A stretch of DNA of 64,000 nt from an uncultured Gammaproteobacteria bacterium (GCA_964640635.1 CAZXFD010000002.1:26153-90152), one strand, 5' to 3'. Shown: positions 7,377 to 39,438, counted from the stretch's first letter. Program-made: numbers and translations. The notes: generated from the sequence alone by a model not told the origin.

Positions 7377-7411
7377 GTCATTTGTCATTTGTCATTTGAC
7401 ATTTGTCATTT
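7377..7411. repeat. Tandem heptamer repeat (GTCATTT)x5 abutting the palindrome
   Basis: gtcatttgtcatttgtcatttgacatttgtcattt. It overlaps the stop of the upstream glycosyltransferase gene. Confidence 0.7.
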
Positions 7412-14186: not shown

Positions 14187-14230
14187 GTAAGAATTTTATT
14201 CCTTAAAACTTTATACTTTAAACTTTTTAC

Positions 14231-15247
14231 TTATTTATACCATTTATAAAGCTCTCTGCTTCTAATCTTCACGATATTTTTGAAAATAAACTTTCTTTTT
14301 TTAAACATTTTTTTATATTTATCATGACTTTTCCAAAAAAATTTTAGCGTGCTTCTTTCAAAAAGCAATACATAAATAAACTTTTTAAACTCATAGATAA
14401 ACAATGGGAAAAAACATCTAATAAAATTCATTGTAGACTCATTTTTAATAAGCAAATAAATATGATTTCTATAAGAATACTCATTTACCCAAGATGACTT
14501 GTTTTTTCTATTCTCTACCACACTCAAACCCCCACGAACAGATCTATCATGATAACAAATCATATCTGCTAAAAAATAGCTCTTGAATCCTGCTAAACGC
14601 AATCTAAATGCCAAATCAACATCTTCTTTATAGCTAAAAAAATCTTCATCAAAATATTCATTATTAATCTTAACATCTTCTAGTGCTTTTTTTGCATATA
14701 TGGGGCAAGCACCACATGGACCAAATATTTCTCTAGTTCTTGAAAATTCAACAGAATCCTCTTTCAATTGACCAAAATCTACAACCTTATGATTCTTAAA
14801 AACTTCAAAGCCACATGTATCTATAATATTTGTTTTTCCTTGCTTATCTGCATTGTATGGATCTTCATTATTGAACTTCCACTGATATAGTTTTGGCTCT
14901 ATTGATCCAATAGAATCCTTATCTTCTTGATTATCTATGAAATAAAATAGATTATCTAAAAAATCAGACTCAATAATCATATCTTGATTGAGGCACATTA
15001 TATAATCCGACTTTGCCCAATTCATTAATCTATTATGGGCTTTTGCAAAGCCAATATTTTCTTTATTTATAATTACTTTAAATTGAGGAAAATATTTATT
15101 TATCACAGCTACCGTATTATCATTTGAGCCATTATCCATTATGTTGAGCTCAAAATCTTTAAAATTTTGCTTTAAAACAGAATTAATACAGTGTTTAATG
15201 TATTTTTCTCCGTTCCATGTAACTAAATTTATACTTATTCTAGACAT
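14231..15247 (-). CDS. Glycosyltransferase family 2 (rhamnosyltransferase-like)
   Basis: ISINLVTWNGEKYI...DNGSNDNT N-terminal GT2 signature and an internal DxD-type region. Confidence 0.8.
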   Translation of the reverse strand: MSRISINLVTWNGEKYIKHCINSVLKQNFKDFELNIMDNGSNDNTVAVINKYFPQFKVIINKENIGFAKAHNRLMNWAKSDYIMCLNQDMIIESDFLDNLFYFIDNQEDKDSIGSIEPKLYQWKFNNEDPYNADKQGKTNIIDTCGFEVFKNHKVVDFGQLKEDSVEFSRTREIFGPCGACPIYAKKALEDVKINNEYFDEDFFSYKEDVDLAFRLRLAGFKSYFLADMICYHDRSVRGGLSVVENRKNKSSWVNEYSYRNHIYLLIKNESTMNFIRCFFPLFIYEFKKFIYVLLFERSTLKFFWKSHDKYKKMFKKRKFIFKNIVKIRSRELYKWYK

Positions 15248-19700: not shown

Positions 19701-22493
19701 TAACATTAATTTTTGCGTTTCTTCAGATTCTAATACTTGGGGAGAAACTTTAAATATATCTATAAAAATTAAGGGGTCTTTTGTTTGTGCATTTTTTAAG
19801 CAACATGATAATCCATTTTGGATAGCAGTCTGAAAGTCTTGAGATTCAAAAAATTCATTAGGAAAATTATATTCCCTTTGTATATCAATTGCAGTAAATA
19901 CATCTACTAGGTTACACATTGGGGACAAGAGCGTTATCATTTTTAATTTTATTACATCTTGCACTTCTTGAGACTGCAATATATCACTCGACAAATTAAA
20001 TTCTTTTTTTAATTTTACTAAATTGTGAGTATCTAAATATACTGATGTATTGAGTATTCTAGCCTTAATAGCAAATTGTATTTCTTGGGACTGTAGAATA
20101 TCATCTGACGCTGATAATATTTGTCTTATATGAATTGCTCTATCTATTCTATTATCCGAAAACTCTGCTATTATTGCCGATTTTATAGCATTTATAATTT
20201 CTTGAGACTGCAATACATCCTCTGATACATAAAATTCTTCTTTTATTCTTAATATACCGTTTATATTTTTACTCAATAAAAACTGTAACATACATATTTT
20301 TACAGCGTCCTGCATTTCTTGAGACTGCAATACATCCTCTGATACATAAAATTCCATTTTTATATTTATTGCTTCATCTATGTCTCCGACAGAAATTTGT
20401 CTTATAATTTGTTCTTTGGCGGCTTCTTGAATCTCAGAAAATTTACAAATTCTCTCTACAGATGGTTCACTTTCTACATTATCATTTATTAACTCTTCAT
20501 CAATAAGGCCCTCTGCTTCTACTATAATAGGATCATCTATTACTATAAATCGTTTCTTAATTTTTATTGCTTCATATACTTTTCCTGATGATAAATATTG
20601 TATTATTCCTATTTTTACCGCATCTTGCATTTCTTGAGATTGTAATATCTGAAAAGAGAGATGAAATTTATCTTGTATGTTTATTGCCTCGTATAAGCCT
20701 CCCGATGACAAAAGGTGAATTATTACTAATTTTACACAATCATCCATATCATCTTTTGAAATGCCCACTTTTTCTTGAAGTTCTCTGGCTCTATATAAAT
20801 CTCGATGAGGATATAAAAAGCTACGTATTATTTTTTTTGCAATATTTTGAAAAACTTCTTCTGATATTCTAAGTTTTTCTTTAATTTTTATTGCGCTATC
20901 TATAGAATTATTGTGCATAAGACGTGATATTGCATTTTCTCCAGCATACTGCACTTCCTTAGAAAATAATATTTCATCCGTAATTTGAAATTTTTCAAAA
21001 AACCCAATTACTGTATCTATATAATATGAAGCTTCATTTAATAATCCTATCAATCCAATTTTTACGGCATCCTGCACCTCTTTAGAAAGTATCACCTCGC
21101 TAGAAACTTGAAACTTATCTATAATTTTGATTGTTTCATGTGTAAACTTCTTCGTAAGAGAATTTATTAACCCTTTTTTTATTGCATCATCAATTCCATC
21201 TGTTATTTCTATGTCAGTAGATAATTTAAATACACTTCTTAGTCTAATAACTAAATCTGAATTATAACCACTAGATAAAATATTTATTACATTTTGTTTT
21301 GCAAGCGATTGAAGATCTTCAGATAATATAACCTCCTCTGATATTTGAAATTTTTCTATAATTTGAAGGACTGTATTTACATAATTTGTTGACTTTCCAA
21401 GTAGGCTAATTATTGTTTGTTTTGCTGAATCTTGAATTTCTTTAGACTTTATTACTTCGTCTGGGATTTGAAATCTATTTACAAATTCTACTGCATGATC
21501 GACGCCATATGCACTAGATAACTTATTTGCCATTCCTTTTCTTGCAGCATCTTGAATTTCTTTAGACTTTATTACTTCTTCTGAGATTGGAAATTTTGTT
21601 ATAATTTCTAAAGCTCGAACAATGTTAAAATTCCAATTAGATAAACACATCATTATTGCTTGTTTTGTATATTTTAATATAGAATCTTTAGAGATACTTA
21701 ATTTTTCTAACAACTTCTCCAGATCATCTAAATTACTATAATATAAAGCATTAGCCATACCCTTATCCGCTGCATCTCTGAGCTTTTTAGATGTTAATAT
21801 TTTTTCTGATACATCAAACTCTTCTATAAGTTCTAGAATTTTATTTGCATCAGCCCCTACTGATAACTCGCTTATAATTTTATTAACCACAGCCTTTTGA
21901 ATTTTCTCTAAATATGTATTTTCTTGTATATTAAATTTCTTTTTTAGCTCTATTACACCGTGAACATAGTCCCCTTTACCAGTTTCAAGTGAATCTATAA
22001 TAGATTTTTGCGTGGCCTTTTGCATACTTGACTGTTTTATAACATCTTCTGAAATATTAAATTCTTCTTTAATTTTTATTGCATTTTCTAAATCATTATT
22101 CGACAAACGATTTATTATTTCTTTACTAGCCATGCTCTGTATTTCTTGAGATTCCAATACCTCTGGCGATATATTAAATTTTTCTTTTATATTTAAAGCA
22201 CCCCATATATATCCTTCCGATAAACAGTTTATTATTCCCTTTTTTGCAGCATCCTGAACCATTGGGAAATTAATTAGAGTTTCAGAAAAATTATTTTTTT
22301 CTAATATATCTATGGCATTTTTGTTTTCTCCCCAATCTGATAATTTTGAGATCATTTCTTCTAAATCTTCTTTTTGTTCTTCTGACAAACTTAAATATTC
22401 ATCTAATTCATAGAGGCTTTTAGGCGTATCATCTTTTTCTAAGTTTTTTAATTCTATGTCCTCAATATTTATTTGTTGTGGCTTTTCTAACAT
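16728..22493 (-). CDS. Giant (1,921 aa) cytoplasmic tandem-repeat protein of unknown function; ~25-30 copies of a 39-40-aa helical repeat plus a ~700-aa non-repetitive C-terminal region
   Basis: Repeat consensus roughly F-[NQ]-[IV]-S-E-[ED]-V-[IL]-x-S-[KQ]-E-[IM]-Q-D-A-x-K-x-G-[MI]-[IA]-N-x-L-S. DNA repeats with periods of 117 and 120 bp occur, e.g. 20198-20237 vs 20315-20356. There is no signal peptide. The C-terminal tail has a GNAT-like Rx(x)GG segment, which is weak evidence. Confidence 0.8.
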   Translation of the reverse strand: MLEKPQQINIEDIELKNLEKDDTPKSLYELDEYLSLSEEQKEDLEEMISKLSDWGENKNAIDILEKNNFSETLINFPMVQDAAKKGIINCLSEGYIWGALNIKEKFNISPEVLESQEIQSMASKEIINRLSNNDLENAIKIKEEFNISEDVIKQSSMQKATQKSIIDSLETGKGDYVHGVIELKKKFNIQENTYLEKIQKAVVNKIISELSVGADANKILELIEEFDVSEKILTSKKLRDAADKGMANALYYSNLDDLEKLLEKLSISKDSILKYTKQAIMMCLSNWNFNIVRALEIITKFPISEEVIKSKEIQDAARKGMANKLSSAYGVDHAVEFVNRFQIPDEVIKSKEIQDSAKQTIISLLGKSTNYVNTVLQIIEKFQISEEVILSEDLQSLAKQNVINILSSGYNSDLVIRLRSVFKLSTDIEITDGIDDAIKKGLINSLTKKFTHETIKIIDKFQVSSEVILSKEVQDAVKIGLIGLLNEASYYIDTVIGFFEKFQITDEILFSKEVQYAGENAISRLMHNNSIDSAIKIKEKLRISEEVFQNIAKKIIRSFLYPHRDLYRARELQEKVGISKDDMDDCVKLVIIHLLSSGGLYEAINIQDKFHLSFQILQSQEMQDAVKIGIIQYLSSGKVYEAIKIKKRFIVIDDPIIVEAEGLIDEELINDNVESEPSVERICKFSEIQEAAKEQIIRQISVGDIDEAINIKMEFYVSEDVLQSQEMQDAVKICMLQFLLSKNINGILRIKEEFYVSEDVLQSQEIINAIKSAIIAEFSDNRIDRAIHIRQILSASDDILQSQEIQFAIKARILNTSVYLDTHNLVKLKKEFNLSSDILQSQEVQDVIKLKMITLLSPMCNLVDVFTAIDIQREYNFPNEFFESQDFQTAIQNGLSCCLKNAQTKDPLIFIDIFKVSPQVLESEETQKLMLPIVIDLLRTKGIKETIELINRFHVNEEIVSDAAKEVIAWALSNDLRRDFVQEIIDTFHLNEETILDAVVQAISKISVASRMIYNAISIIEKYNISDEMIASSKIQQYAKEGMVNRFSEGNFDAGILIKDKFNVSEELVIEAAKEGMIRCLLLYIDKASKIKEEFNVVLSKGDLDYCIEKSYFKSIDNGHGFFSKDCDYIFDDAKNLNLLPSELYFIKDDLDKIRTMGSEVKSQYIFDKLKRKHENWIDEQNILIPFETGAKIFGYSKMFNYIERPNISKHDALHNFLKIIDLYNVSGLSANEFYNNILKQIKDDTAVYEIGSSYHVLNSISRNINSNLEETLSQAKEYGLPTLDKLLKEIRSVGDVFSSWKMLRKYNDLCQILNRKEILDQLKELKSIGKINLYNYIEKLAFHPNIEMQKVMEFWKNSGRFLQLSDSHTPREVHDRKKPSNYIVISHLDLSSDDLRDALVEGDYDNLQVFEPLEIDYKLMISSGKYGSLELNELILKAIGKRREGVLGEAKNPDKLFSELQKIFKENKINIVPYLQSGKIEEDKAQVLESIKDQILNIIYNQNSGLEDDRIIEEYRAKINLKSDPNGVVAGNDTSCCMPFGSGKSNVYTFNPICSLFTIQRLTESSDNNKQKNWRTIAQSVLTKNIDIEKNILEVVAQLNKFEAHMHDIVSDDVLIDKQSIITCDNIEVAPNFKSQRNNTEVLKILYANFFKEYIRRFAKKYNLDENKVLVGLGYTDANISLDRIANTTVPEAPVGYSDNVNFGESMLLDISKEEKEGIILSRVTGMQEKKKINLKRLELKLPRGISSLTFQDSIKVAYIEGKAYKDNQKLIQYLHNMENALIAKDVNNMIKNRPEMSFKYTGEDKKMHGYILAYEGKMDKDDKDSENIVYVSDLASDGNSRAGGSLILAFVEAYKVNYIEKDNIIPIFAQFREQTSYQIIMKQLEKLSKDTGVKFEAKETNTYMVGNDTMHEVIIRGSK

Positions 22494-23417: not shown

Positions 23418-24416
23418 CTACAATCTCTCACACAACTCAATCATCCTATTACTAAATCCCCACTCATTGTCATACCACGCAATAAGTTTTACTAAATTTC
23501 CATCCATTACATTTGTAAGTGACAAATCAAAAATTGATGAGTATGGATTTCCTATAATATCAGATGATACAATTTTATCAGTCGTTGTCATTAGTATTCC
23601 CTTGAATTTTTTATCCTTAGACATCTTTATAAACAATTCATTTATTTTTTCAATACTCGTATTTTCTTTTATCTTTATTGTGACATCAGAAAGTGAACCA
23701 TCGACAACTGGAACTCTTATTGCAAGTCCATCAAATTTTCCCTTGAGCTTTGGAATAGCATTTGTAACAGCTATCGCAGCACCAGTTGAAGTAGGAACAA
23801 TGTTTTGCGCTGCTGCCCTTGCGCGACGTAAGTCGCTATGAGGACCGTCAACAAGATTCTGATCTGCAGTATAAGCATGAACTGTTGTCATAAAAGCTTT
23901 TTCTATTGTAAAATTATCACTCATTATTTTCATAACAGGTGCAATACAATTTGTTGTACAAGATGCTAGATCATATACATCAATTGTTTTCTTAATTTTT
24001 TCATCATTTACACCAAGAACTATTGTCTGAACATTTTCACCTTTTGCAGGAGCTGAAATTATAACTTTTTTTGCCCCAGCTTTCATATGCTTTTGTGCAT
24101 CCTCATACGTTCTAAATATTCCTGTGCACTCTAGTACTATATCAACTTTCAAATCCTTCCATGGTAAAAGCGTAGGATCTTTTTGAGCATAAACTGGATA
24201 TAGTTTTCCATCAACAACAATTCCGTTCTTATTTGATGATACTTTATTCTCAATTCTCTTTTGCGCAGTGTCATACTTTAATAAATGAGCAAGAGTTGCA
24301 CTGTCTGTAAGATCATTGATAGCAACTACTTCAATATTTTTTTTATTTAGTGCGATTCTAAATGCAGCACGACCTATACGACCGAAGCCATTAATTGCTA
24401 TTCTTTTTTTTGCCAT
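23418..24416 (-). CDS. gap: Glyceraldehyde-3-phosphate dehydrogenase
   Basis: INGFGRIGR Rossmann motif and ASCTTNCIAP catalytic-Cys signature. Confidence 0.9.
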   Translation of the reverse strand: MAKKRIAINGFGRIGRAAFRIALNKKNIEVVAINDLTDSATLAHLLKYDTAQKRIENKVSSNKNGIVVDGKLYPVYAQKDPTLLPWKDLKVDIVLECTGIFRTYEDAQKHMKAGAKKVIISAPAKGENVQTIVLGVNDEKIKKTIDVYDLASCTTNCIAPVMKIMSDNFTIEKAFMTTVHAYTADQNLVDGPHSDLRRARAAAQNIVPTSTGAAIAVTNAIPKLKGKFDGLAIRVPVVDGSLSDVTIKIKENTSIEKINELFIKMSKDKKFKGILMTTTDKIVSSDIIGNPYSSIFDLSLTNVMDGNLVKLIAWYDNEWGFSNRMIELCERL

Positions 24417-24572
24417 ATAATTTTATTTTTAATAATTATTTAATTTTATAATAAATTTTTGCCACACTATGTATATCGTCATCCTGAATTTATTTCAGGA
24501 TCTTTAGGTGATTGCCTATAATTAAGAGATTCTGAGATAAACTCAGAATGACAACAAGGCAAAAATTTTTAA

Positions 24573-25998: not shown

Positions 25999-26075
25999 AA
26001 TAATTATAATTATTTTATAACAATCCCTTTATAAACGTATTTATTGAAATTTTGAAGTTTGAAATTTATTTGTCA

Positions 26076-26146
26076 TTTTTCGCCAGAGGCGAATCAGCCT
26101 TTGGCTGAGAAATTTACCTATCTCGCCAAAGCTTTAGCGAAGGCGG
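26076..26146. repeat. Diverged member of the GC-rich intergenic repeat family (ttttcgccagaggcgaatcagcctttggctgag...gcgaaggcggat)
   Basis: It shares ttttcCGCCAG...GCGgATCAGCCTTTGGCTGAag with the copies at 29013 and 39311 but lacks their central hairpin. It lies between the alpha and beta oxidoreductase genes. Confidence 0.5.
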
Positions 26147-26147
26147 A

Positions 26148-27240: not shown

Positions 27241-27275
27241 GCCTGAAAGCTGATAGCTAATCGCTAATAGCTAGT
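27241..27275. repeat. Intergenic repeat gcctgaaagctgatagctaatcgctaatagctag, related in inverted orientation to 32111-32143
   Basis: Its reverse complement is about 80% identical to tagctgttagctattagcttttagctttcaggc at 32111-32143. Confidence 0.5.
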
Positions 27276-29012: not shown

Positions 29013-29095
29013 TTTAGTATTTAGTGTTTAGTATTTTCCGCCAGCCAGCCCCGCTACGCGAAGCATGACCGGGGAGGCGGATCAGCCTTTGGCTG
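29013..29095. repeat. GC-rich ~83-bp structured intergenic repeat (copy A), bounded by agtgtttag direct repeats
   Basis: About 96% identical to 39311-39392. It contains a ccccg-16nt-cgggg hairpin and a cagcc-ttt-ggctg hairpin. It lies between pduL and ackA on the strand opposite to both genes. Confidence 0.7.
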
Positions 29096-29129
29096 AAGTG
29101 TTTAAAAATTACTTATTTACATTAAACTG

Positions 29130-29711
29130 TTAGTCGATTAAAATAATTCCTTGCTCTCCCTGAGATATTCCACAAGCATTTGCTTCATCTAAATCAATAT
29201 GTGCTCTTGAATTAAATTTTTCATCAACTCTTACTATAACATTATCAAATATAACTCCTCTTTCTCTGCCAACCTTCAATTTTACAATTGCCCTATGTTC
29301 TATTCCCAGGCTCTGAGCCTCTAGACTAGATATATGAATATGTCTCTTTGCAACTATGACACCACTTTCCAAATTAACCTCATCTATTGGGCCAACGACT
29401 TTTAATCCAGGAGTATCATCTATATCTCCAGAAACTCTTATTGGGGCCTTTATTCCTAGCTTAAAAACGTCTGACAACAATATTTCTATTTGTGTTTTTT
29501 CTCTCTCGGGCCCTATCATTCTAACATTTTCTATAGACCCGTTTGGTCCTATTAACTGGACTACTTCTTGTGCTGCAAAATCATCCCCTTGAGATAATTT
29601 CTTTTCGCTTTGAAGCTCATACCCCTCTCCAAATAATTTTTCAACTAATTCTCGACTAGGGTGTATGTGCCTATTTGAATACTCGACTTCAATATTAAAT
29701 TCTTTTGCCAT
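29130..29711 (-). CDS. pduL: PduL-type phosphate acyltransferase (phosphotransacetylase/propanoyltransferase)
   Basis: Two PduL half-domains, each with an RHIH motif (SNRHIHPS and AKRHIHIS). Confidence 0.8.
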   Translation of the reverse strand: MAKEFNIEVEYSNRHIHPSRELVEKLFGEGYELQSEKKLSQGDDFAAQEVVQLIGPNGSIENVRMIGPEREKTQIEILLSDVFKLGIKAPIRVSGDIDDTPGLKVVGPIDEVNLESGVIVAKRHIHISSLEAQSLGIEHRAIVKLKVGRERGVIFDNVIVRVDEKFNSRAHIDLDEANACGISQGEQGIILID

Positions 29712-29721
29712 ATTTTTATAG

Positions 29722-30741
29722 TTATATTTTAAATTTTATTAATTGTTTTTTGTTTAGAAGACCTACCTGTGCTCCGATTTTTGTAATTACATTACAACTT
29801 CTTATCATAGCCAATCTTAAACTTTTTTTGATATCATAATCTAGAATAAGTCCAGATACAAAACTTGAACCAAATGCATCTCCTGCTCCTGTTGTATTTA
29901 TACTTTTTACCTTTAGTATTTTTTCATGAATCACTTCTTTGCCATCATAGACATACGCACCCCTATGACCACATGTAATACTAACAATCTTAGGTCCCCA
30001 AGAATAAATAGCTTCTAACAGAATATCTATTTCGTTGACTTTTTTAGAGCTTGATCCACACAAAGCTCTTGCTTCTTCTATATTTATATTAAAAAATTCT
30101 ATTTGCTTTAAATATTTTTTAAAATATTTACTACCCTTTTCTAATTGTAAGACACCCGGATTCCATGCTACTTTTATTTTTTTCTTTTTTGCATACGACA
30201 AAATAGTTTTGATATTTTTTTCAACCAATGAATCTTTACCACTAAGGGACGCAATATAAAACCATTTTGTGTCGATACCTTTCAAGTCATATGGCGTAAT
30301 ATTTAAAACCGAATTAGCTCCACGATGTGTAAAAAGAACATGTTCATGATAATTTCCATAATTTACAATAAAAGAAAAACCAGAATGTATTCCGCTGAAA
30401 ATCTGTAAATTATCTGTATTGATATTATTTTTCTTAAGTTCTTTTACTATAGAGCTAGCAAACCAATCATCTCCCAAACTAATAAAAGATGCTGTTTTTA
30501 AACCCATCAAAGAAAAACTAACGGCCGTGTTCATTCCACCTCCGCCATATGTAAAACTCACATCTTCTGAAGAAATCTTTGAACCATATCGAAAAGCCAA
30601 AAACTCTTCTAGGTTTTTACCATGTTTTATAAGCTTAGCATCATCAGTATAATACATTATATCCTGCGTTGCTCCACCAAATGTTACAATGTCAAATTTA
30701 GGCATAAATAATACAAAAAATGTTAATAAATTATTTATCAA
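29722..30741 (-). CDS. PfkB-family carbohydrate/nucleoside kinase
   Basis: The C-terminal TTGAGDAFGSSFVSGL anion-hole motif and the N-terminal GGG..N motif. The start may be Met13 (30705). Confidence 0.8.
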   Translation of the reverse strand: MINNLLTFFVLFMPKFDIVTFGGATQDIMYYTDDAKLIKHGKNLEEFLAFRYGSKISSEDVSFTYGGGGMNTAVSFSLMGLKTASFISLGDDWFASSIVKELKKNNINTDNLQIFSGIHSGFSFIVNYGNYHEHVLFTHRGANSVLNITPYDLKGIDTKWFYIASLSGKDSLVEKNIKTILSYAKKKKIKVAWNPGVLQLEKGSKYFKKYLKQIEFFNINIEEARALCGSSSKKVNEIDILLEAIYSWGPKIVSITCGHRGAYVYDGKEVIHEKILKVKSINTTGAGDAFGSSFVSGLILDYDIKKSLRLAMIRSCNVITKIGAQVGLLNKKQLIKFKI

Positions 30742-30827
30742 TACCTTATTATTATATCAAAAATTGAACAATAAATAAAACAAGTAAAATTGTCTTTACT
30801 TGTCTACATAATAAGCCTAAAATTGGG

Positions 30828-31331
30828 TCAATTCTTTAAAAACCACTGCATTGTATAACCATTTGGAGCGTCACTTACAAAGTCTTTTTTTGGACAAGAT
30901 CCAGAACCATGATTGCTGCTTTCTGTTTCAAAAGAAGATACTTGAAATATGGCAAAGCTTTCCTCACAACCATATTCTCCAGCATTAAACTTGTGATATC
31001 TATAATAATATTTATGATCATTTAATGGATCAAAAATAGGAGAATCAAAAATACCTTTTTCAAACAAATTATATAAAACAAATTTTGATTCGTTTTTTAG
31101 CTTATATCCATAGTCCCAAGCATCTAAACTAATATTATCTGGCAAAGCATTAAAATCTTGAACATACACACTTATAGCCATTTGTATAGTTGAAATATCT
31201 GTGCTTCTTCTAATATCTCTTATATGCTTCCATTGATTGGTCATATAAATACCCATAACAATAGACCAAAAAGCGATCATAAAAACTAAAAAAGTTGTAG
31301 TAAAAAATAAATTTATCTTTTTTTCTATCAT
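30828..31331 (-). CDS. Hypothetical N-terminally membrane-anchored protein
   Basis: 167 aa. The N-terminal hydrophobic helix FTTTFLVFMIAFWSIVMGIYM is followed by a soluble domain. Any pilin-like character is speculative. Confidence 0.5.
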   Translation of the reverse strand: MIEKKINLFFTTTFLVFMIAFWSIVMGIYMTNQWKHIRDIRRSTDISTIQMAISVYVQDFNALPDNISLDAWDYGYKLKNESKFVLYNLFEKGIFDSPIFDPLNDHKYYYRYHKFNAGEYGCEESFAIFQVSSFETESSNHGSGSCPKKDFVSDAPNGYTMQWFLKN

Positions 31332-31460
31332 GGTATTATTATATCTAAATATATCTCTAAATACAAAACCTCCTCCATAAAAATATTACGATACGAAAAA
31401 AACACGGCTCATTGTTATGAACCGTGTTTTATAAATACTGTTTTTTCTATAAGTGAATAA

Positions 31461-32105
31461 TTATTTTTTTTCTTCTGTCTTTTCTTCTGTCTTTTCTTCC
31501 TTAGGAGCTTCTGTGCTTACAAGAGTTTCTTCAACAACAACCTTTTCTTCTTCATAAGGAACTGCTGATGCAATTGCCTGATCTTCTGGATTTAATATCT
31601 TAATTCCCTTTGGAACCTTGATACTTGATACAAAAATAATATCGTTTATATTTTCAAGCATAGAAAGATCTATTTCTATTTCATGAAGCATGTCTTCTGG
31701 AAGACATTCAATTTCTATATGATCTATGTCTCTACTAAGAACAGCTCCAAGCTCTTTTACAGCCTTTGATTCCCCAATAAATTTCAAAGGAATTTCTGAC
31801 TTAAGTTTGTGTAACTTACTAAATTCATAAAAATCTGCATGTAAAATCTTATTTGTTCTTGGATCTCTAAAAACATCGTGAATAAAAACAGGAACTACTT
31901 TATCTTCTAAATTAATACTTATTATAGTATTTTCACCAGCATCAGAAAGTGATTTCAAAAAATCATGCATTTTGATCTTTATAGTCTTGGTTTCTTTCTG
32001 AGGTCCATATATAACTCCTGGCAAATATCCTTCTTCAATCAAATGTTTTGCCTTTTTATCTGTTTTAATGTCTCTTATTTCTGCTTTTAATGTTAGTTCT
32101 GTCAT
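31461..32105 (-). CDS. rplY: 50S ribosomal protein L25 / general stress protein Ctc
   Basis: bL25 N-terminal fold pattern (LKAEIRD...GYLPGVIYG) and a long-form C-terminal extension ending in KTEEKTEEKK repeats. Confidence 0.85.
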   Translation of the reverse strand: MTELTLKAEIRDIKTDKKAKHLIEEGYLPGVIYGPQKETKTIKIKMHDFLKSLSDAGENTIISINLEDKVVPVFIHDVFRDPRTNKILHADFYEFSKLHKLKSEIPLKFIGESKAVKELGAVLSRDIDHIEIECLPEDMLHEIEIDLSMLENINDIIFVSSIKVPKGIKILNPEDQAIASAVPYEEEKVVVEETLVSTEAPKEEKTEEKTEEKK

Positions 32106-32110
32106 TGTAT

Positions 32111-32177
32111 TAGCTGTTAGCTATTAGCTTTTAGCTTTCAGGCCTGATGGCTGATTGCTGATGGCTGATTGCTGATT
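32111..32177. repeat. Inverted copy of the 27241 repeat followed by a 14-bp tandem repeat (ctgatggctgattg)x2.5
   Basis: 32111-32143 is the inverted copy of the 27241 repeat; 32144-32177 is the 14-bp tandem. The element is intergenic between tgt and rplY. Confidence 0.5.
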
Positions 32178-32241
32178 AATAATTGTTAGTCATATCATTG
32201 TAAAACAAGTTTGATTTTATGTCAAGCTAAAATAAATCATT

Positions 32242-33342
32242 CTAAAATTTACCTGCCTTTATAGATACCCTTATTTTTTTCATCATTTCAAGATAAAATT
32301 CAATATTATTTAAGGTAGAAAGACGAAGAGCTAGTGGATCTTGAACTCTAAAAATATGATGTAAATAAGCCTTTGAATAAGTTCTTAATTCTTCTATTTT
32401 GGAGTTACTATTTATAGAGCTTTTGTCATTTGCAAATTTTGCATTGGTTATGTTTATTGTTTTATAAAAACCTTTGTTTAAATTATCATTCTTAAAAAAA
32501 TACATTCTTCCATGTCTTGCTTCGCGACTTGGTATAACGCAGTCAAACATATCAACTCCATTTTTTACAGCTTCAATAATATTTTCTGGATATCCTACTC
32601 CCATTAGATATCTTGGACTTTGTTGAGGAATTTCTTTTACTATGTGATTTAAAATTTCATACATTTCATCGTTGGTTTCTCCGACTGCAAGTCCTCCAAT
32701 TGCATAGCCATCAAAATCAATATCAACAAGTTCCCTAAGGCTTTTAGATCTCAATTCTTTATTTAATCCCCCCTGCACTATTCCAAAAAGAAGATTTTTG
32801 TTCTTTGGGTCTAATTTTTTCTTAGCAACTTTACATTTTTTTGCCCAAAGACTTGTTATCCTAAGCGCTTCTTCTAATTTCTTTTTATCTGATTTTGAGT
32901 CCAGACAAACATCTAATACCATCTGAATGTCTGAGTCCAGCACACTTTGAGTTTTCATAACCGACTCTGGTGTAAAAAAATGCTTTGAGCCATCATATGT
33001 TGACTGAAATTCTACACCACCCTCCATTAATTTCCTTATTTTTGAAAGAGAAAAAACCTGAAAACCACCTGAGTCTGTTAGCATTGGTTTTTTATAATTC
33101 ATAAAATTTCTAATTGATCCAAATTTTTTGATGATTTGAAGTCCTGGTCTTAGGTATAAATGATATGTATTTGCCAAAATAATTTCTGGATTTAATTTTT
33201 TTATATCCAAATAACTAAGAGATTTTATTACCCCTCGAGTAGCAATTGGCATAAAAACAGGCGTATGAATTTCGCCTGATTTTGTTTTGAGTATTCCAAG
33301 TCTTGCATTACTAATTTTTGATTTTTTTAAAATCTTGTACAT
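32242..33342 (-). CDS. tgt: Queuine tRNA-ribosyltransferase
   Basis: LTDSGGFQVFSL signature, and VGYP...DMFDCV with its catalytic Asp. Confidence 0.9.
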   Translation of the reverse strand: MYKILKKSKISNARLGILKTKSGEIHTPVFMPIATRGVIKSLSYLDIKKLNPEIILANTYHLYLRPGLQIIKKFGSIRNFMNYKKPMLTDSGGFQVFSLSKIRKLMEGGVEFQSTYDGSKHFFTPESVMKTQSVLDSDIQMVLDVCLDSKSDKKKLEEALRITSLWAKKCKVAKKKLDPKNKNLLFGIVQGGLNKELRSKSLRELVDIDFDGYAIGGLAVGETNDEMYEILNHIVKEIPQQSPRYLMGVGYPENIIEAVKNGVDMFDCVIPSREARHGRMYFFKNDNLNKGFYKTINITNAKFANDKSSINSNSKIEELRTYSKAYLHHIFRVQDPLALRLSTLNNIEFYLEMMKKIRVSIKAGKF

Positions 33343-33349
33343 ATTTAAT

Positions 33350-35362
33350 TTAATTTACAACTTTTCCTTTCGGAGAAGCTTTCTTGTCAGAAAAGCACTC
33401 TGTTGTTAATGGATTCTTTTTTATAATAACTGGGGAATTAGAAAACACGTCCGTTGCTGAAAAATAAATAATTGAGCTAAGTGGAGCGAATTTAGAAACA
33501 TCCCCCTTGCCAGGAGTAACCATCAAATTGAAGGTTATTGTATTGTCCTTATTCTTATCTGAACTAGAAACCTGCCAACTCAATTGTCTATTATTTTCAT
33601 CAAATTTTATATTTTGACCATCCTGTATACCAACACTTTCAAAATCAACATTTGCTGGGAGGGTTGTTTTTATCAATATATCTTTTATATTATTCAATTT
33701 CGAGTTAAATTTCCAAACAACTCTATAGCCTGTGAGTTCTCCAACCATTGGTGGAAGTGGTCCTGAACCAATCTGAGCGCCTGATTCATCATAATACCTA
33801 CAATCACTAAAAAAATCAATTGGCGTATTAATCTTACTACTTATTATATTTGATTGAACTTGAGATTCATCACCGCCATAATATAAAGAAGACATAGACT
33901 GAATTGTATAATTATTTTTATCTATAAAATCTGTTTTAAATCCCAAGATTTTTATCTTGAAGCTGAGTCTAGATTCTTGACCTGGCTTTATTTGAGCAAG
34001 CGATGCAACGGAGTTTTCGTCCCAAGTGATTGTTTTATTTTCTTTATCTATTACTGCATTATAATTATTAGAAACCAAATCAAAATCAACATATTGCGAA
34101 TCTATTTTAGTAACTATTCTGACATTATTCATAGCACTCTCTCCTGAATTTCTATAAATAACTTGATAACTCAACTCATCTCCAAAATTATACGCTTCAT
34201 CTGTAAATTTTTCATTTATAAGTGTTTTCAAATTAATTTTATTTGCAATAAGATTAATTTGTTTTTTAGCTTCTTTATAAGGAATCCAGGTAGAATTATC
34301 GCCATCACTAACTGATATTTCTTGAGCTAATGATTTTATCTCCAGTATCGCCTTTATGCTAGAAGAACTACTTAAATCAGAATTAAAAAATCCAGAAATT
34401 GTAATATTTTTTTCTTCATTACTTTTCAAGTTATCTATAAACCAAATATTATCTGATATCAATTTAGCATCGCCACCTGACTCTATTGCTATAAAATTAT
34501 CTCCATAATCTAATTTAATACGAAAATTATCAAGACTATTTTTGGAAATATTTTTATATTTTATTTTATATTCGACCTTATTATTACTTTGAACTTGCTC
34601 TGGGGCTTCTAATGAAAAATCTATTAGTGTGTCTGATATAGACACCTCCTTTGAAGCTTTGCTTTCTAAAATAGAACTAAAATTGGCAGGCTCATAATAA
34701 AGAACTGCATCTAATAAAAGTTTTTGATCCTTGTCTCCTATAAGCTGTGCGTACAAATCCACTTCTCCCGACTGACCTGGACGCAAATCTTTCAATTTCC
34801 AAACGTTCAAAGACAAGGTGCTTGCGCTTGGATCTGCTTTTATATAATTAAAACCACTTGGGTAGCTAATTCTAAGCTCTAGATTTTTTATTTTTATATT
34901 TTGTTTGTTGTAATATTTAATTTTATATTTTGCTTGAGTTCCCGAAACAAAGCTATCGTCAGATGTAATTTCTACAATAACCCCTTCACCCTCAACAGTT
35001 TTTGTATTATTAAAATAAACTATAGTAAAAAATATTCCTGCAAATATTGCCATAAAAATAAGAAAGGAAATAAGTTTCCCTTTGCTTTTTTTTGGTGTTT
35101 CAAAATTTTCAAGACTTGTCTTGTTTTTCCAAATATTATCTATATCTTCTGTAAAATTAACCCTGTCTTTATTGAAATCCCTTATATTTTCAGTCTTTTT
35201 TCTTATTGGAATACGGGGTTTTATATCATAATTTTTCCTTTGAGTTTTTTCAATTTTTACAACATTTACTCCTTCACTTAAATTTGGCTTAGCATCTCGA
35301 AGATTTAGTACGTGATCTTTTTTCAATCCATTAGATATTCCTTTGTTTTTTATTTCTATCAT
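33350..35362 (-). CDS. Membrane-anchored protein with a Lys-rich N-terminal tail, one TM helix and ~4 DUF11/CARDB-like Ig-fold repeats
   Basis: TM LISFLIFMAIFAGIFFTIVYF. Recurring blocks [KE]Y[KQ]I.Y.N.....[LN].......[ID] are spaced about 100 aa apart. Confidence 0.6.
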   Translation of the reverse strand: MIEIKNKGISNGLKKDHVLNLRDAKPNLSEGVNVVKIEKTQRKNYDIKPRIPIRKKTENIRDFNKDRVNFTEDIDNIWKNKTSLENFETPKKSKGKLISFLIFMAIFAGIFFTIVYFNNTKTVEGEGVIVEITSDDSFVSGTQAKYKIKYYNKQNIKIKNLELRISYPSGFNYIKADPSASTLSLNVWKLKDLRPGQSGEVDLYAQLIGDKDQKLLLDAVLYYEPANFSSILESKASKEVSISDTLIDFSLEAPEQVQSNNKVEYKIKYKNISKNSLDNFRIKLDYGDNFIAIESGGDAKLISDNIWFIDNLKSNEEKNITISGFFNSDLSSSSSIKAILEIKSLAQEISVSDGDNSTWIPYKEAKKQINLIANKINLKTLINEKFTDEAYNFGDELSYQVIYRNSGESAMNNVRIVTKIDSQYVDFDLVSNNYNAVIDKENKTITWDENSVASLAQIKPGQESRLSFKIKILGFKTDFIDKNNYTIQSMSSLYYGGDESQVQSNIISSKINTPIDFFSDCRYYDESGAQIGSGPLPPMVGELTGYRVVWKFNSKLNNIKDILIKTTLPANVDFESVGIQDGQNIKFDENNRQLSWQVSSSDKNKDNTITFNLMVTPGKGDVSKFAPLSSIIYFSATDVFSNSPVIIKKNPLTTECFSDKKASPKGKVVN

Positions 35363-35422
35363 ATAATTTTTGTTTTTGTATATTTTGAAGATAATTTACA
35401 AATTATAATTATCCAATAAATT

Positions 35423-36058
35423 TTAACTAAAGCTATTTAATTTGTGTTCCAAAATAGATTCAAAATAATGTCTCAACCATTTTTTTATTAATATCAAATC
35501 ACTAGTCTCTATATCTAATTTTAGCATGAGCTCAATGTTTTTTAAATAGTCATTTTCTGCAAATACACTTAATTCATTTCCATATTTTTCTATACCAAAA
35601 AAATTATTTGGCATAAATCCAAAATGCTTTAAAATAGAAAAAAAATAAACTATTTGAAGTTTTAATTTATCTAACAAATCCTTGTGAGAAATAAAATCCT
35701 CCAAAAAAACTATAGTATCGTTGTATAAATCTGTCTCCTCTAAATCTTGTTTTAAAAAGCCCGTTAATATTTCTGATACTTGTGAAAAAAACTTGAAATC
35801 TACATTATCAAAAAAACTCGCGAAATAGCTCTTCACGGTTTTAACTTGAGCTATTTTATCAATGTCATTGCCATGGGCCAACATAAAAATACACAAATTA
35901 CCAGGTATTAAAAATCCAGATAATTTACTCTTGGCAGATGCCACGGATTTTCCTACAGCTACAACAAGGCCTCGCTCGAAAGAAAATATATGATAAAGTC
36001 TGTCTTCATTTCTAAACTTTTTGGCAGATAAAATAATTCCTTGAGTTATGTATTCCAT
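35423..36058 (-). CDS. recO: DNA repair protein RecO
   Basis: The N-terminal OB-fold pattern (GIILSAKKFRNEDRLYHIFSFERGLVVAVGK) resembles RecO. Its length is right and the context is housekeeping. Confidence 0.55.
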   Translation of the reverse strand: MEYITQGIILSAKKFRNEDRLYHIFSFERGLVVAVGKSVASAKSKLSGFLIPGNLCIFMLAHGNDIDKIAQVKTVKSYFASFFDNVDFKFFSQVSEILTGFLKQDLEETDLYNDTIVFLEDFISHKDLLDKLKLQIVYFFSILKHFGFMPNNFFGIEKYGNELSVFAENDYLKNIELMLKLDIETSDLILIKKWLRHYFESILEHKLNSFS

Positions 36059-36102
36059 GGGGATAATTAGGAAATTAGTAGGATTAGGAAATTAGGAAGT
36101 TA

Positions 36103-36153
36103 GCCCCGCCTCCATATAGTTTATAATTGTTGCGGGATCCCGCTTCGCGGGAG
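36103..36153. repeat. GC-rich palindromic element (ccccgcctcc ... gcgggatcccgcttcgcggga), a distant relative of the 29013/39311 family
   Basis: It shares gcttcgcg and ggaggcgg-type cores in the opposite orientation. It is intergenic between ileS and recO and flanked by attaggaaa repeats. Confidence 0.4.
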
Positions 36154-36199
36154 AAACTAGGAGATCAGGAGATTAGGAAAATTATGAGATTGAAAAAGA

Positions 36200-39088
36200 T
36201 TACTTACCTATGGAGATATCCATTTCTATTTCATTTGATTTGATTCTCTTTGAAATAATAATATTCTCTAGACTTTCGTTAAATACAATATTATCTGCTA
36301 AAACATCTCTCATCAATGACTCTCTATTATCATTTATAAGCTGAACAAAATTATTGTTCAATATATTTATATAAACAATTACTCTGTCTGAGATAGTAAG
36401 ACCCGCTTCTTTTCGAAGAGAATTTATATTTCTTACAAGTTCTCTCAAATCACCCTCATCCTTTAGCTCTTTATTAATATTTGTATCCAAATATGTATCT
36501 TCAATACCTTTGTCATACTCAACAGATTTTACATTGACCTCACTAGCTATAATGTCTTCAAACTCTTTTCTTAGTTTTTTACCAAAATTATACTTTAGCA
36601 AAAATAGTGGCTGTCTTACTTTTATAGCTGATTGATCTCTCAAATTATGAGTCTTTTCAACGACAAGTCTTGCTCTTTTCATTTCATCCAATACTTCTAT
36701 TTGTTTTGGATCAAGTTCAGATGTCTTTGGCCAGACTTCCAAATGAACGGACTCTTTCTTTCCATAGACTTCTTTATATAAATATTCTGCCGTAAAAGGA
36801 ATAAATGGTGCTATTATCTTACTAAATTCTAAAAATACTTTATTTAAAGTTTTGGGTGCGTTTTCGTCTCCATCTTTGAATCTATCCCTTGATCTTCTTA
36901 AATACCATGTTGAAAGTTCTAATATAAACTCTGAAATATTGTCTGATGCTTTTTTGAGGTCATACAAATCCAAAGCGTTTGTAACGTCTATTTTTAATTC
37001 CTCTGTTTTTATAAGTATCCATTTGTCCAAAATATTATCGCTATCTACAAACTCTGTATCACTTTCTTTTTTATACATATTATAAAAAGATACAATGTTC
37101 GAAAGTGTCAAAAAATATCTTGCATAAGTACCACTTAAATCTTTTTCACTAAAACACAAATCCCCGCCACGTACAACTGGTGAGCTAAGAAGATAAAACC
37201 TCAAAACATCTGCGGAGTATTTCTTTATCAAATAATTTGGTTCTGGATAATTCTTTAAGCGCTTTGACATTTTCTTTCCGTCTTCTGCTAAAACCATTCC
37301 ATTTACTACAACGTTTAAAAAAGCTGGTTTATTAAATAATGCAGTGGCTAACACCATAAGCGTATAAAACCAACCACGTGTTTGATCTTGTCCCTCTGCT
37401 ATAAACTGTGCAGGAAAATTATCTTCAAACCATTTTTTATTCTCAAATGGGTAGTGAACTGATGCATAAGGCATAGACCCCGACTCAAACCAACAATCAA
37501 ATACCTCTGGAATTCTAGTAGCCACGCCACCACACTTTGGACAAGTTATTTCAATATCATCTACAAAATGCTTATGTAAATCATCTATTTTTTGACCACT
37601 AGCTATCTCTAACTCTTCTTTTGAACCATATACAATTACTTCTCCACAAGAACACTTCCAAACAGGAATTGGTGTTCCCCAAAAACGATTTCTAGATATT
37701 GACCAATCTCTTGCACCTTCAAGCCATTTTCCAAATCTTCCTTCTTTAAAGCTGTCTGGAATCCAATTTGTTTTTTGATTTGCTTTTACTAAATTATCTT
37801 TAATTTTTGTAACTTCTACAAACCAAGATCCTGTTGCATAATTTAGTAGTGGTGAGTCACACCTCCAACAATGTGGATATGAGTGTTCGTATTTTTCTTT
37901 TGAAAAAACAAAGCCTTTCTGAGATAAATATTTAAGTATCTCTATGTCAGCACCTTGATGATCATCCTTTTTCTTTACATCAATCCCTGCAAAATCAATT
38001 ACATCACTAGTAAATTTTCCCTCTGGAGATACATGCTGGATAAATGGTAAATGATTTTCTTTTGCAAGATTCATATCATCTTCACCAAATGCAGGAGCAA
38101 TATGTACAATTCCTGTTCCATCTTCCGTAGTAACAAAATCAGCTCCATAAATTTTATAAATATTTTCATAGTTATCTAATTTTTTATTCACAAAATAATC
38201 AAACAATGGCTTGTATGATTTTCCAACTAGTTTTTTGCCCTTAAACTCTTCAACTACTTCATCACCTTCAAAATTGTTTTTCAAAAATTCATATCTTTCC
38301 TTTGCAATAATATAATATGAATCACTTAATTTAATTTTTATATATTGTATTTTTTCGTTTATCGCAAGCGCTACATTTCCAGGAAGTGTCCATGGAGTTG
38401 TAGTCCATGCAAGTATATATGTTTCTGGTTCATCGACAAGTTCAAATTTTGCAGTGACTGAAATATCTTTTATATCTTTATATCCTTGAGCAACTTCAAA
38501 GTTTGATAATGTTGTACCACATCTTGGACAAATATGCATTGACTTGTAGCCTTCATATATAAGTCCTTTTTTATGAAGTTCTTTGAAGACCCACCAAACA
38601 GACTCCATATAATTTATATCCATTGTCTTATAATCATCTTCCATATCAACGAAACGGCCAATCATAGGAACAAATTTTCTCCACTGGTCTGCATATTTCA
38701 TCACACTGGTTCTACATAGCTCATTAAATTGGGAAATAGAGTATTTATCCAAAATTTCTTTTTTTCCATTTAATCCCAATTCTTTTTCAACTTCATTTTC
38801 AACGGGAAGTCCATGACAATCCCATCCCCATTTTCTTCGGACGTTATATCCATTCATTGTCTTGTAACGTGGAATAACATCTTTTATAACTGATGCGACA
38901 ATATGACCATAGTGAGGAAGACCATTTGCAAATGGAGGTCCATCATAGAAAGAAAAATCTCCTTTTTCTCCTTTATTTAAAGACTTTTTAAAGATTTCAT
39001 TATCTTCCCAAAATTTCAAAATTTCCTGTTCTTTTTGAAACAATTTTGATTGTTGACTGTTTTCAGTATCTTTGTTTTTTTCAGACAT
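36200..39088 (-). CDS. ileS: Isoleucine--tRNA ligase (type 2-like)
   Basis: PFANGLPHYGH (HIGH-class motif in IleRS form), KMSKR (KMSKS), the CP1 editing domain and a WCISR-like segment. The protein is 962 aa. Confidence 0.9.
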   Translation of the reverse strand: MSEKNKDTENSQQSKLFQKEQEILKFWEDNEIFKKSLNKGEKGDFSFYDGPPFANGLPHYGHIVASVIKDVIPRYKTMNGYNVRRKWGWDCHGLPVENEVEKELGLNGKKEILDKYSISQFNELCRTSVMKYADQWRKFVPMIGRFVDMEDDYKTMDINYMESVWWVFKELHKKGLIYEGYKSMHICPRCGTTLSNFEVAQGYKDIKDISVTAKFELVDEPETYILAWTTTPWTLPGNVALAINEKIQYIKIKLSDSYYIIAKERYEFLKNNFEGDEVVEEFKGKKLVGKSYKPLFDYFVNKKLDNYENIYKIYGADFVTTEDGTGIVHIAPAFGEDDMNLAKENHLPFIQHVSPEGKFTSDVIDFAGIDVKKKDDHQGADIEILKYLSQKGFVFSKEKYEHSYPHCWRCDSPLLNYATGSWFVEVTKIKDNLVKANQKTNWIPDSFKEGRFGKWLEGARDWSISRNRFWGTPIPVWKCSCGEVIVYGSKEELEIASGQKIDDLHKHFVDDIEITCPKCGGVATRIPEVFDCWFESGSMPYASVHYPFENKKWFEDNFPAQFIAEGQDQTRGWFYTLMVLATALFNKPAFLNVVVNGMVLAEDGKKMSKRLKNYPEPNYLIKKYSADVLRFYLLSSPVVRGGDLCFSEKDLSGTYARYFLTLSNIVSFYNMYKKESDTEFVDSDNILDKWILIKTEELKIDVTNALDLYDLKKASDNISEFILELSTWYLRRSRDRFKDGDENAPKTLNKVFLEFSKIIAPFIPFTAEYLYKEVYGKKESVHLEVWPKTSELDPKQIEVLDEMKRARLVVEKTHNLRDQSAIKVRQPLFLLKYNFGKKLRKEFEDIIASEVNVKSVEYDKGIEDTYLDTNINKELKDEGDLRELVRNINSLRKEAGLTISDRVIVYINILNNNFVQLINDNRESLMRDVLADNIVFNESLENIIISKRIKSNEIEMDISIGK

Positions 39089-39310
39089 AAAATTAAAATA
39101 TAAGTGATTATTGGCTTATTTTACTATATTTAGAAATAAAATCAACTAAAACAACAGAGATCTAATATACTCAAAAACACCCCTATCTGGTCTCTTTACA
39201 TTTCTCGAAATAACTCGTGTTCTATTTCTCATCTCTTGCTTCATCCAGTCAAAATTTTGACATCTTGAATAGTTTAGCATTTGTTTTGATTCGTTTTTTT
39301 TCATACATTT

Positions 39311-39392
39311 AGTGTTTAGTCTTTTCCGCCAGCCAGCCCCGCTACGCGAAGCATGGCCGGGGAGGCGGATCAGCCTTGGGCTGAAGTGTTTA
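39311..39392. repeat. GC-rich ~82-bp structured intergenic repeat (copy B)
   Basis: Near-identical to 29013-29095, with 3-4 differences. It lies between the small merR-like gene and ileS. Confidence 0.7.
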
Positions 39393-39438
39393 GTAATTAG
39401 AACAAGTCTAAATCCTAATTACTAAAAACTAAAATCTT

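Follow-up and report, generated by a model that had tools for sequence, protein, structure and literature searches.

What are the two near-identical GC-rich repeats that stand about 10 kb apart in an AT-rich bacterial genome fragment, and how did they come to be there? The fragment is a 64,000-nt stretch of DNA deposited under the name of an uncultured Gammaproteobacteria bacterium (GCA_964640635.1 CAZXFD010000002.1:26153-90152; the window, hereafter, is this whole stretch). The window has ~30% GC, nearly all of its genes lie on the minus strand, and the two repeats, copies A and B, are its two strongest GC islands. Our analysis indicates that they are probably two sister copies, recently formed, of a selfish and non-autonomous DNA element of the same kind as repetitive extragenic palindromes (REPs) and miniature inverted-repeat transposable elements (MITEs), and that a third, shorter copy in the window, copy C, belongs to the same family. 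The best named homologues of the encoded AckA and IleRS come from metagenome-assembled genomes (MAGs) of Patescibacteria, Komeilibacteria and Falkowbacteria, and one syntenic relative is "Candidatus Komeilibacteria bacterium S5_K13"; judged by these similarities, the host organism is a member of the Patescibacteria, or candidate phyla radiation (CPR).

Aligned by blastn, positions 29019-29104 and 39307-39392 match over 86 nt with 96.5% identity and 3 mismatches, in agreement with an initial annotation of this DNA that had reported near-identical repeats at these two places. A 30-mer taken from the core has exactly two occurrences in the window, where 100 shuffles gave none. The copies and the tandem tracts beside them are given below; R1 is a covariance model seeded on elements that were reached by a protein search, not by a DNA search.

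29037-29096, minus strand: copy A, long double-hairpin form (R1 match at 29035-29098, 37.2 bits, E 6.4e-7; the loop of hairpin 2 holds 32 inserted nt)
29096-29082, minus strand: copy A, hairpin 1, TCAGCC-AAA-GGCTGA
29081-29076, minus strand: copy A, TCCGCC
29075-29043, minus strand: copy A, 33-nt extension
29042-29037, minus strand: copy A, GGCGGA
39325-39384, minus strand: copy B, long form with the architecture of copy A (R1 match at 39323-39386, 38.2 bits, E 3.8e-7)
26079-26108, minus strand: copy C, short canonical form (sensitive search; R1 45 bits, E 8.6e-9, copy C having been in the R1 seed)
29013-29036, no strand assigned: heptamer tandem tract beside copy A (Tandem Repeats Finder: TTTAGTA/TTTAGTG, 3.4 units, on the plus strand; ACTAAAC/ACTAAAT on the gene strand)
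29097-29104, no strand assigned: single tract-like word, AGTGTTTA on the plus strand, the right-hand bounding repeat of copy A (direct repeat TAAACACT, 8 nt)
39308-39322, no strand assigned: heptamer tract, remaining part, separating copy B from the ATG of a 52-aa open reading frame (ORF), from sequence and alignment

Copy A lies between the stop codon of a pduL-type phosphotransacylase gene (29130) and the start of ackA (29009), and copy B between the stop codon of a MerR-family gene (39439) and the start (39304) of the conserved 52-aa ORF upstream of ileS. Both are thus placed 20-28 nt upstream of an ATG, and all three window copies are intergenic. The 10 kb between A and B encode the PduL-type phosphotransacylase, a PfkB kinase, ribosomal protein L25, TGT, a DUF11 protein, RecO and IleRS. 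Each long copy consists of a canonical unit, TCAGCC-AAA-GGCTGA-TCCGCC-TCT-GGCGGA, that carries the 33-nt GC-rich extension in its second loop, which R1 treats as a loop insertion. Because a 23-mer of this extension (GCCAGCCCCGCTACGCGRRGCAT) has no exact match in either the genome contigs or the metagenome contigs, the extension is lineage-specific. Assemblies break at the element, and one retrieved locus (L001) begins within copy A.

The repeats are missing from the corresponding places in related genomes. Four syntenic loci from relatives (L003-L006, of which L003 and L005 overlap; AckA 78-90% and IleRS 85% identical) were compared with the window, and in all of them the gene order is conserved and runs through both repeat sites without the repeats. 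The pduL-ackA spacer measures 28 nt in L003/L005 and 36 nt in L004 versus 120 nt in the window, and the spacer between merR and the 52-aa ORF 81 nt in L005/L006 versus 134 nt. The comparison is unambiguous at the copy B site, where the alignment with L005/L006 shows a clean indel of ~65 nt in an otherwise conserved heptamer tract. At the copy C junction, the closest relative (L002) has a 4-nt spacer. A search with R1 of 99 kb of the relatives' loci, with L003 and L005 overlapping, gave no match. The window sites are empty in the relatives, which constitutes an insertion polymorphism.

The initial annotation had described each repeat as bounded by agtgtttag direct repeats. Such words do occur at both ends of both copies, and they are units of a 7-nt tandem tract. 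Beside copy A, the tract directly precedes the ackA ATG and is the origin of the left-hand word; on the plus strand it is built from GTTTAGT/ATTTAGT units, and relatives have it unbroken at the orthologous site. A second tract word lies beyond copy B, at 39385-39394 (direct repeat ACTAAACACT, 10 nt), so that in the window the copy B tract is split by ~65 nt: CTAAACACT, followed by TCAGCC...GGCGGAAAAG and then by ACTAAACACT. At the same site L005/L006 have an unbroken tract of six heptamers (CTAAACA/CTAAATA) that runs up to the ATG. Since the tract is unbroken in the relatives, the words bounding the window copies are, by this sequence comparison, best read as units of the tract and not necessarily as a target-site duplication. 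The number of units varies: upstream of ackA there are 3 in the window and at least 11 in L002, whose contig ends there, and upstream of the 52-aa ORF there are 6 in L005.

Folding recovered all of the pairings proposed in the initial annotation, namely the outer tccgcc...ggcgga, the inner ccccg...cgggg and the cagcc-ttt-ggctg hairpin. The orientation that it gave to the repeats, opposite to the flanking genes, proved to be arbitrary: the core is quasi-palindromic and R1 matches it on both strands. The strand that folds better is the minus strand, which is the sense strand of the genes, with RNA fold z-scores of -4.4 (A) and -3.5 (B) against -0.9 and -1.4 for the plus strand, because the inner helix contains 3-4 G-U pairs on the minus strand. 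All three differences between A and B keep the minus-strand fold; one converts U-G to C-G, one changes a loop and one falls in a single-stranded position.

Copy C has the minus-strand sequence TCAGCC-AAA-GGCTGA-TTCGCC-TCT-GGCGAA and lies between the genes for the alpha and beta subunits of PFOR. Its hairpin 1 is identical to that of copy A, and in its hairpin 2 a loop of 3 nt stands where copy A has the 33-nt extension. Relative to A and B, the second stem differs by one compensatory change, from C-G to U-A, and the DNA fold z-scores of copy C are -4.5 and -4.2.

Copy C represents the canonical unit of a family. In this unit of ~30-34 nt, two GC-rich hairpins, each with a 6-bp stem and a 3-nt loop, stand side by side in two-fold symmetry; in the consensus YY-TCAGCC-AAA-GGCTGA-TCCGCC-TCT-GGCGGA-AA, either DNA strand folds into the same double hairpin, and the symmetry is extended by a flank preference, for YY 5' and AA 3' of the unit. 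Among the protein-anchored elements the stems occur as TCAGCC/GGCTGA, TCCGCC/GGCGGA, TCGGCC/GGCCGA, CCAGCC/GGCTGG, CCCGCC/GGCGGG and TCATCC/GGATGA, all compensatory. In 17 sequences, both partners vary in 11 of the 15 pairs, and the covariation score comes to 0.43, compared with 0.125 after shuffling (0 of 500 shuffles reach the observed value) and at most 0.10 with slid partners, so that the conserved structure for which the initial annotation had suggested folding and covariation analysis is present both in the copies and across the family. The loops covary as well, position 1 of loop 1 with position 3 of loop 2 and position 3 of loop 1 with position 1 of loop 2; the 30-mer is therefore a near-perfect palindrome made of two 15-nt sub-palindromes.

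A 21-nt core that is contained exactly in A, B and C (TCAGCCMAAGGCTGATYCGCC) is found at 118 or more loci in contigs representing one genome per species, where by our own estimate, which assumes uniform base composition, chance would give ~1 match. The initial annotation had proposed counting copies and had allowed for there being two only, with no conserved structure elsewhere; what was found is a third copy in the window and a large family beyond it. Hosts among the matches listed include many classes of Patescibacteria, Ignavibacteria, Omnitrophota, Planctomycetes, Binatia, Dehalococcoidia, and deltaproteobacterial and gammaproteobacterial MAGs, and several of the listed matches are on contigs of 200-840 kb. 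Viral contigs yielded one core match only, and the element is therefore not mainly phage-borne. The second loop is 3 nt long in 105 of 117 elements matched by regular expression in the listed loci and the window; the remaining 12, which include the window's two long copies, have longer second loops of unrelated sequence.

Across its sites, the family shows no preferred orientation relative to genes. With crude ORF calls (at least 110 aa), the elements of the listed loci were antisense to both flanking genes in 20 cases, sense to both in 17 and mixed in 7 + 7. Flanking direct repeats of at least 6 nt accompany 24% of the elements, as opposed to 2.9% of randomly paired flanks, and enclosing inverted repeats of at least 7 nt accompany 4.4%, as opposed to 0.6%; short tandem tracts and the loops of existing hairpins are therefore frequent locations for the element. 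At several sites, the 5' part of a downstream tRNA gene is partially duplicated and the copy lies within the duplicate. Other copies are inserted in frame in protein-coding genes:

L028:3569-3602: in-frame copy in RsmH/MraW, aa 253-263, inside PF01795 (5-325)
L043:7009-7042: in-frame copy in a PyrK-like gene, between its domains
L012:3634-3667: in-frame copy in a Wzy ligase, in the ORF and outside the matched domain
L062:3126-3159: in-frame copy in a Peptidase_S11 (PBP5-like) protein, in the ORF and outside the matched domain

Depending on orientation, these 10-codon inserts encode PPEADQPLAE or QPKADPPLAE. The balance of orientations, the in-frame copies and the flanking repeats together make the family fit selfish DNA better than an RNA signal on the sense strand. 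Tandem or closely spaced double hairpins, clustered in a BIME-like manner, were seen at L095:120-230 and L024:5001-5104.

A gene recurs beside the element. When 169 neighbouring ORFs of the listed loci were clustered, the largest recurrent family consisted of single-domain GIY-YIG proteins of ~80-90 aa (PF01541), and all 10 of the GIY ORFs tested matched this Pfam entry. Seven of 11 GIY-YIG ORFs in the listed loci lie within 150 nt of an element, for which we estimate a binomial probability of ~5e-6, and the five GIY ORFs of the neighbour clustering are all co-oriented with the element. In the reverse direction, 80 metagenome loci were retrieved with the GIY protein alone (a 3-sequence query). 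The double hairpin was present at 14 of the 15 loci of the closest GIY homologues; in 15 loci the element stands 7-33 nt upstream of the GIY ATG, and R1 matched in 19 of the 80, almost always beside the GIY gene. Element and GIY-YIG gene are reciprocally linked, whichever of them is used as the query. The initial annotation had looked instead to a cognate TnpA(REP)/IS200-like transposase, of which there is none in the window and none that recurs beside family members; the recurrent neighbour is the GIY-YIG gene. The nearest solved structures to the GIY proteins are UPF0213 BH0048/EF2693 (E 4e-13) and SLX1.

The gene-associated copies form cassettes, typically upstream of tRNA-Ser, in which the hairpins interrupt a 5' tRNA fragment at the D-loop or the anticodon loop; 11 of 12 loci have an intact tRNA-Ser downstream of the nuclease gene. 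At L125 and L128-L139 (e.g. L128:2944-3338) the double hairpin lies in a duplicated 5' tRNA fragment ahead of the GIY-YIG gene, an arrangement that looks like a homing cassette restoring its target gene. In L129 the layout is hairpin-GIY-hairpin. The same locus contains, at 3260-3400, a near-complete tRNA-Ser-like sequence with a 30-nt double hairpin in its D-loop, beside two intact tRNA-Ser genes and with no ARAGORN call. More distant GIY-YIG ORFs (L161/L162, L163, L192, L198) are located in the 5' region of 16S rRNA or before an RNase P RNA-like GGAAAGTCCGG motif, and in L163 and L192 inverted repeats bracket the GIY-YIG ORF, which places it in the loop of a long hairpin.

The closest known system is that of the NTS/dRS3 and SRM repeats with the Ssn nucleases. 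Ssn proteins are single-domain GIY-YIG proteins that cleave single-stranded DNA (ssDNA) site-specifically next to the hairpin repeats NTS/SRM; these repeats flank the ssn genes and also occur as hundreds of scattered copies in Neisseria, Wolbachia and Rickettsia, and the authors of that study (Chenal et al., Nat Commun 2025, PMC11893778) likened the repeat-gene-repeat layout to an insertion sequence and drew a parallel with REP/RAYT. Our element is similar in that its GC-rich hairpin repeats are scattered over genomes, can fold as ssDNA and cluster by a gene for a single-domain GIY-YIG protein of ~80-95 aa, on both sides of it in some cases (L129); this clustering is a feature of the family and is not seen within the window. 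It differs in consisting of two adjacent hairpins that form a 30-nt palindrome without a GTC-containing 5' flank, in its hosts, which are mainly Patescibacteria and other uncultured phyla (CPR hosts are absent from the main text of PMC11893778), and in the location of its cassettes, upstream of tRNA-Ser and within duplicated 5' fragments of tRNA genes.

The element also shares features with three better-known groups of repeats. The REP, BIME and REPIN sequences of Enterobacteria and Pseudomonas, with their RAYT proteins, are likewise short GC-rich extragenic palindromes in intergenic or intercistronic spacers; repeats flank a nuclease gene dedicated to them, and secondary effects on mRNA are possible. 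REPs are species-specific, whereas the element described here has a core that is conserved across phyla, occurs also in ORFs and RNA-gene fragments, and has a GIY-YIG hydrolase as its partner, not an HUH/Y1 transposase. Rickettsia palindromic elements resemble it as palindromic selfish repeats of a reduced, AT-rich genome whose locations include intergenic DNA, RNA genes or their vicinity, and in-frame positions in protein-coding genes; they are ~100-150 bp long and known only from Rickettsia, whereas our unit has 30 nt (10 codons) and crosses phyla. Like MITEs such as Correia/CREE, ERIC and RUP, it is small, non-autonomous, present in many copies, polymorphic for presence or absence and accompanied by flanking direct repeats. 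Unlike them, it has no terminal inverted repeats of the DDE type, only 6-bp outer stems (TCAGCC / GGCGGA, complementary at 5 of 6 positions); its flanking repeats are variable instead of being a fixed target-site duplication, and no transposase partner was found. The suggestion in the initial annotation that the repeats were mobilised like a MITE or REP-type element is accordingly upheld as regards empty orthologous sites, a many-copy family and enriched flanking repeats, and fails as regards a clean target-site duplication and MITE termini. At its gathering thresholds, Rfam 15 matched nothing in the window, and up to E 10 it gave chance-level matches only, around copy A; applied to 18 canonical loci, it detected tRNAs only. 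Searches of the available literature by sequence strings, which returned unrelated primers only, and by topic, which included the RepRanger survey of REPs, found no description of the element. We therefore know of no published account of this double hairpin, which is related in kind to REP/MITE-like elements.

Do the window copies act as RNA instead? A cis-acting RNA on the minus strand, serving as an intercistronic mRNA stabiliser, a processing site or an attenuator in the pduL-ackA and merR-ORF52-ileS transcripts (ORF52 being the 52-aa ORF) and possibly exapted from a repeat, is the most serious competitor, and we regard it as unlikely. Roles of this kind at the mRNA level have been proposed for some REP elements. 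In its favour, the minus strand folds beyond shuffled sequences and the plus strand does not, the G-U pairs are strand-specific, the A/B differences preserve the minus-strand structure, and all three window copies are in gene orientation, with A and B shortly upstream of an ATG. The orthologous spacers of relatives nevertheless lack the element while the genes are conserved, the family has no orientation bias and occurs inside ORFs, the hairpins are not followed by a U-run, Rfam has no matching family, and with two sister copies only, the G-U pattern gives no evidence of selection. An intrinsic terminator is not indicated on either strand, where a U-run is missing; the minus-strand hairpin is followed by AAAAUAC or AAAAGAC and the plus-strand hairpin by AAGUGUUUA. 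The initial annotation had raised a further possibility, paralogous and independently transcribed genes for small structured RNAs. In its favour, the sequences are intergenic and compact, fold well and stand out as GC-rich from an AT-rich genome; this explanation is nevertheless very improbable: Rfam gives no match even at E up to 10, syntenic relatives lack the sequence, the core is a two-fold symmetric palindrome matching both strands, no terminator follows it, and members of the family are found in ORFs, in frame, in tRNA gene fragments, and in either orientation.

A palindromic element of the REP/REPIN type, or derived from IS200/IS605, that depends for its mobility on a Y1 (HUH) transposase (RAYT/TnpA type) has a general resemblance on its side, that of short GC-rich extragenic palindromes, together with targets prone to be single-stranded (hairpin loops and tandem tracts) and the fact that the better-folding strand is the G-rich (leading-strand) sequence. 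Against this stand the lack of any Y1 transposase among the window ORFs of at least 100 aa, the lack of a recurrent transposase family among the 169 neighbour ORFs (the Pfam scan took in only part of the ORFs in the listed loci), and a core that is identical across phyla, as REPs are not; we hold it to be improbable. Two repeats in the same orientation 10.3 kb apart could also be the attL/attR direct repeats that bound an integrated island. The interval, however, holds housekeeping genes and no integrase, relatives without the repeats keep its gene order across both sites, and a third copy lies outside it; this idea has next to no probability, and the synteny of the interval in L003-L006 rules out an att-site island. 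Hammerhead or other ribozyme cores, integron attC sites, template/variable repeat pairs of diversity-generating retroelements and T-box leaders were likewise discarded, their core motifs being missing on inspection and Rfam giving no support.

The reading that we prefer, a selfish element with A and B as recent sister copies, can be set out as follows. The 33-nt GC-rich extension would have arisen within the second loop in this lineage, and the enlarged version would then have spread to at least two intergenic sites, each lying within a tandem tract of 7-nt units shortly before a start codon. The element presumably acts as folded ssDNA, for example at replication forks, where, by analogy with Ssn, it may be the recognition or cleavage site of a GIY-YIG nuclease encoded elsewhere in the genome, outside the window. 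Repair of the nuclease's breaks by host recombination or template switching could copy the element into targets prone to be single-stranded, such as hairpin loops and short tandem tracts. The stable intercistronic hairpin that results in the pduL-ackA and merR-ileS transcripts would be a by-product.

Several points weigh against this account. A GIY-YIG enzyme is a hydrolase with, to our knowledge, no strand-transfer activity; because it could not carry out strand transfer alone, the copying step is speculative and is the weakest link. Only ~6% of the retrieved elements adjoin a GIY ORF, and the 64-kb window has no GIY-YIG gene, transposase or integrase. The SRM pattern HGTCWYN(0-2)YYVSBRHN(0-5)WNVSBRGN(0-2)RNCYNB, which matches NTS as a positive control, matches 0 of 122 elements with their flanks and nothing in the window on either strand. 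Flanking repeats range from 0 to 12 nt (longer at tRNA genes), with none of at least 4 nt in ~43% of cases, and those in the window may mean no more than that the element entered a tandem tract already there. An exact loss from the relatives would also fit the pattern of presence and absence and has to be allowed for. The 3-4 G-U pairs in the extension of A and B favour the gene-sense strand, which an RNA-level role would also explain. Finally, the sequences used for covariation were chosen by a hairpin filter, though nearly all of the closest loci passed it.

A bolder proposal, which we put forward tentatively and consider possible at best, is that the double hairpin and its ssDNA nuclease, a GIY-YIG protein of ~80 aa, make up a minimal mobile system that spreads horizontally, belongs to a new mechanistic class, neither DDE nor HUH, and homes into targets prone to be single-stranded. 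Its targets would be the D-loop and anticodon loop of tRNA-Ser, the loops of terminators, and short tandem tracts; the flanking target would be duplicated on insertion, and insertions into ORFs would be tolerated as 10-codon inserts. The window's long form would then be a lineage-specific derivative, and the 7/8-nt tracts that are ubiquitous before start codons could be landing pads that the system prefers, or even footprints that it has left.

AT-rich tracts of this period are common in the window. Tandem Repeats Finder places them directly before many start codons on the minus strand, with a repeat unit that differs from locus to locus (no strand is assigned):

7377-7412: period 7-8 tract
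14208-14232: period 7-8 tract
24416-24452: period 7-8 tract
26044-26067: period 7-8 tract
27248-27273: period 7-8 tract
29013-29036: period 7-8 tract, that beside copy A
32110-32177: period 7-8 tract
36065-36103: period 7-8 tract

No Shine-Dalgarno sequence is evident before ackA or recO. The tracts could be contingency repeats, translation-leader repeats or landing pads for the element.

Other GC-rich hairpins occur in the window, one of which may be related to the element:

36122-36154, no strand assigned: candidate fourth copy, partial or degenerate (GCGGGA-TCCCGC-TTC-GCGGGA), within the ileS-recO spacer, a weak match (R1 E 0.22 and 0.66)

The GC-rich insert of this spacer is missing from L004/L005, and its TCCCGC-TTC-GCGGGA hairpin resembles the core of the Neisseria NTS. 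GC-rich hairpins absent from relatives were noted at 36100-36175 and 26122-26147, one of them beginning directly after the stop codon of the PFOR alpha gene. Where the window carries the short copy C, between the PFOR alpha and beta genes, L003 and L004 carry an extra ORF of 407 aa with no Pfam match (L003:12994-14217, L004:12982-14205).

Among the window ORFs of at least 100 aa there is no transposase, integrase or nuclease, and a tRNA/tmRNA scan of the window found none. The conserved 52-aa ORF between the MerR-family gene and ileS (39146-39304, minus strand) has no Pfam match and occupies the same place in L003-L006. Two very long ORFs on the minus strand, one of 6693 aa full of internal repeats (43896-63977; families D1-D20) and one of 1921 aa with no Pfam match (16728-22493), look like typical giant surface proteins of CPR bacteria.

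CPR genomes are regarded as streamlined and repeat-poor. The present case is of a selfish palindromic element in such a genome, active recently enough for polymorphism between relatives and splitting the operon spacers of genes for central metabolism and translation. Its interest is moderate for the window and higher for the family, given the spread across phyla, the GIY-YIG linkage and the targeting of tRNA-Ser: an identical 30-nt core is found in distant phyla, travelling with the gene for a tiny GIY-YIG nuclease. If this nuclease recognises the double hairpin, the partnership of ssDNA nuclease and hairpin repeat known from Ssn would extend to a different motif architecture and to uncultured phyla, and ssDNA-specific nucleases, which are of biotechnological interest, would gain a defined new substrate. 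Such recognition would also explain some of the breaks in assemblies and the 10-residue inserts, PPEADQPLAE and QPKADPPLAE, in proteins predicted from MAGs.

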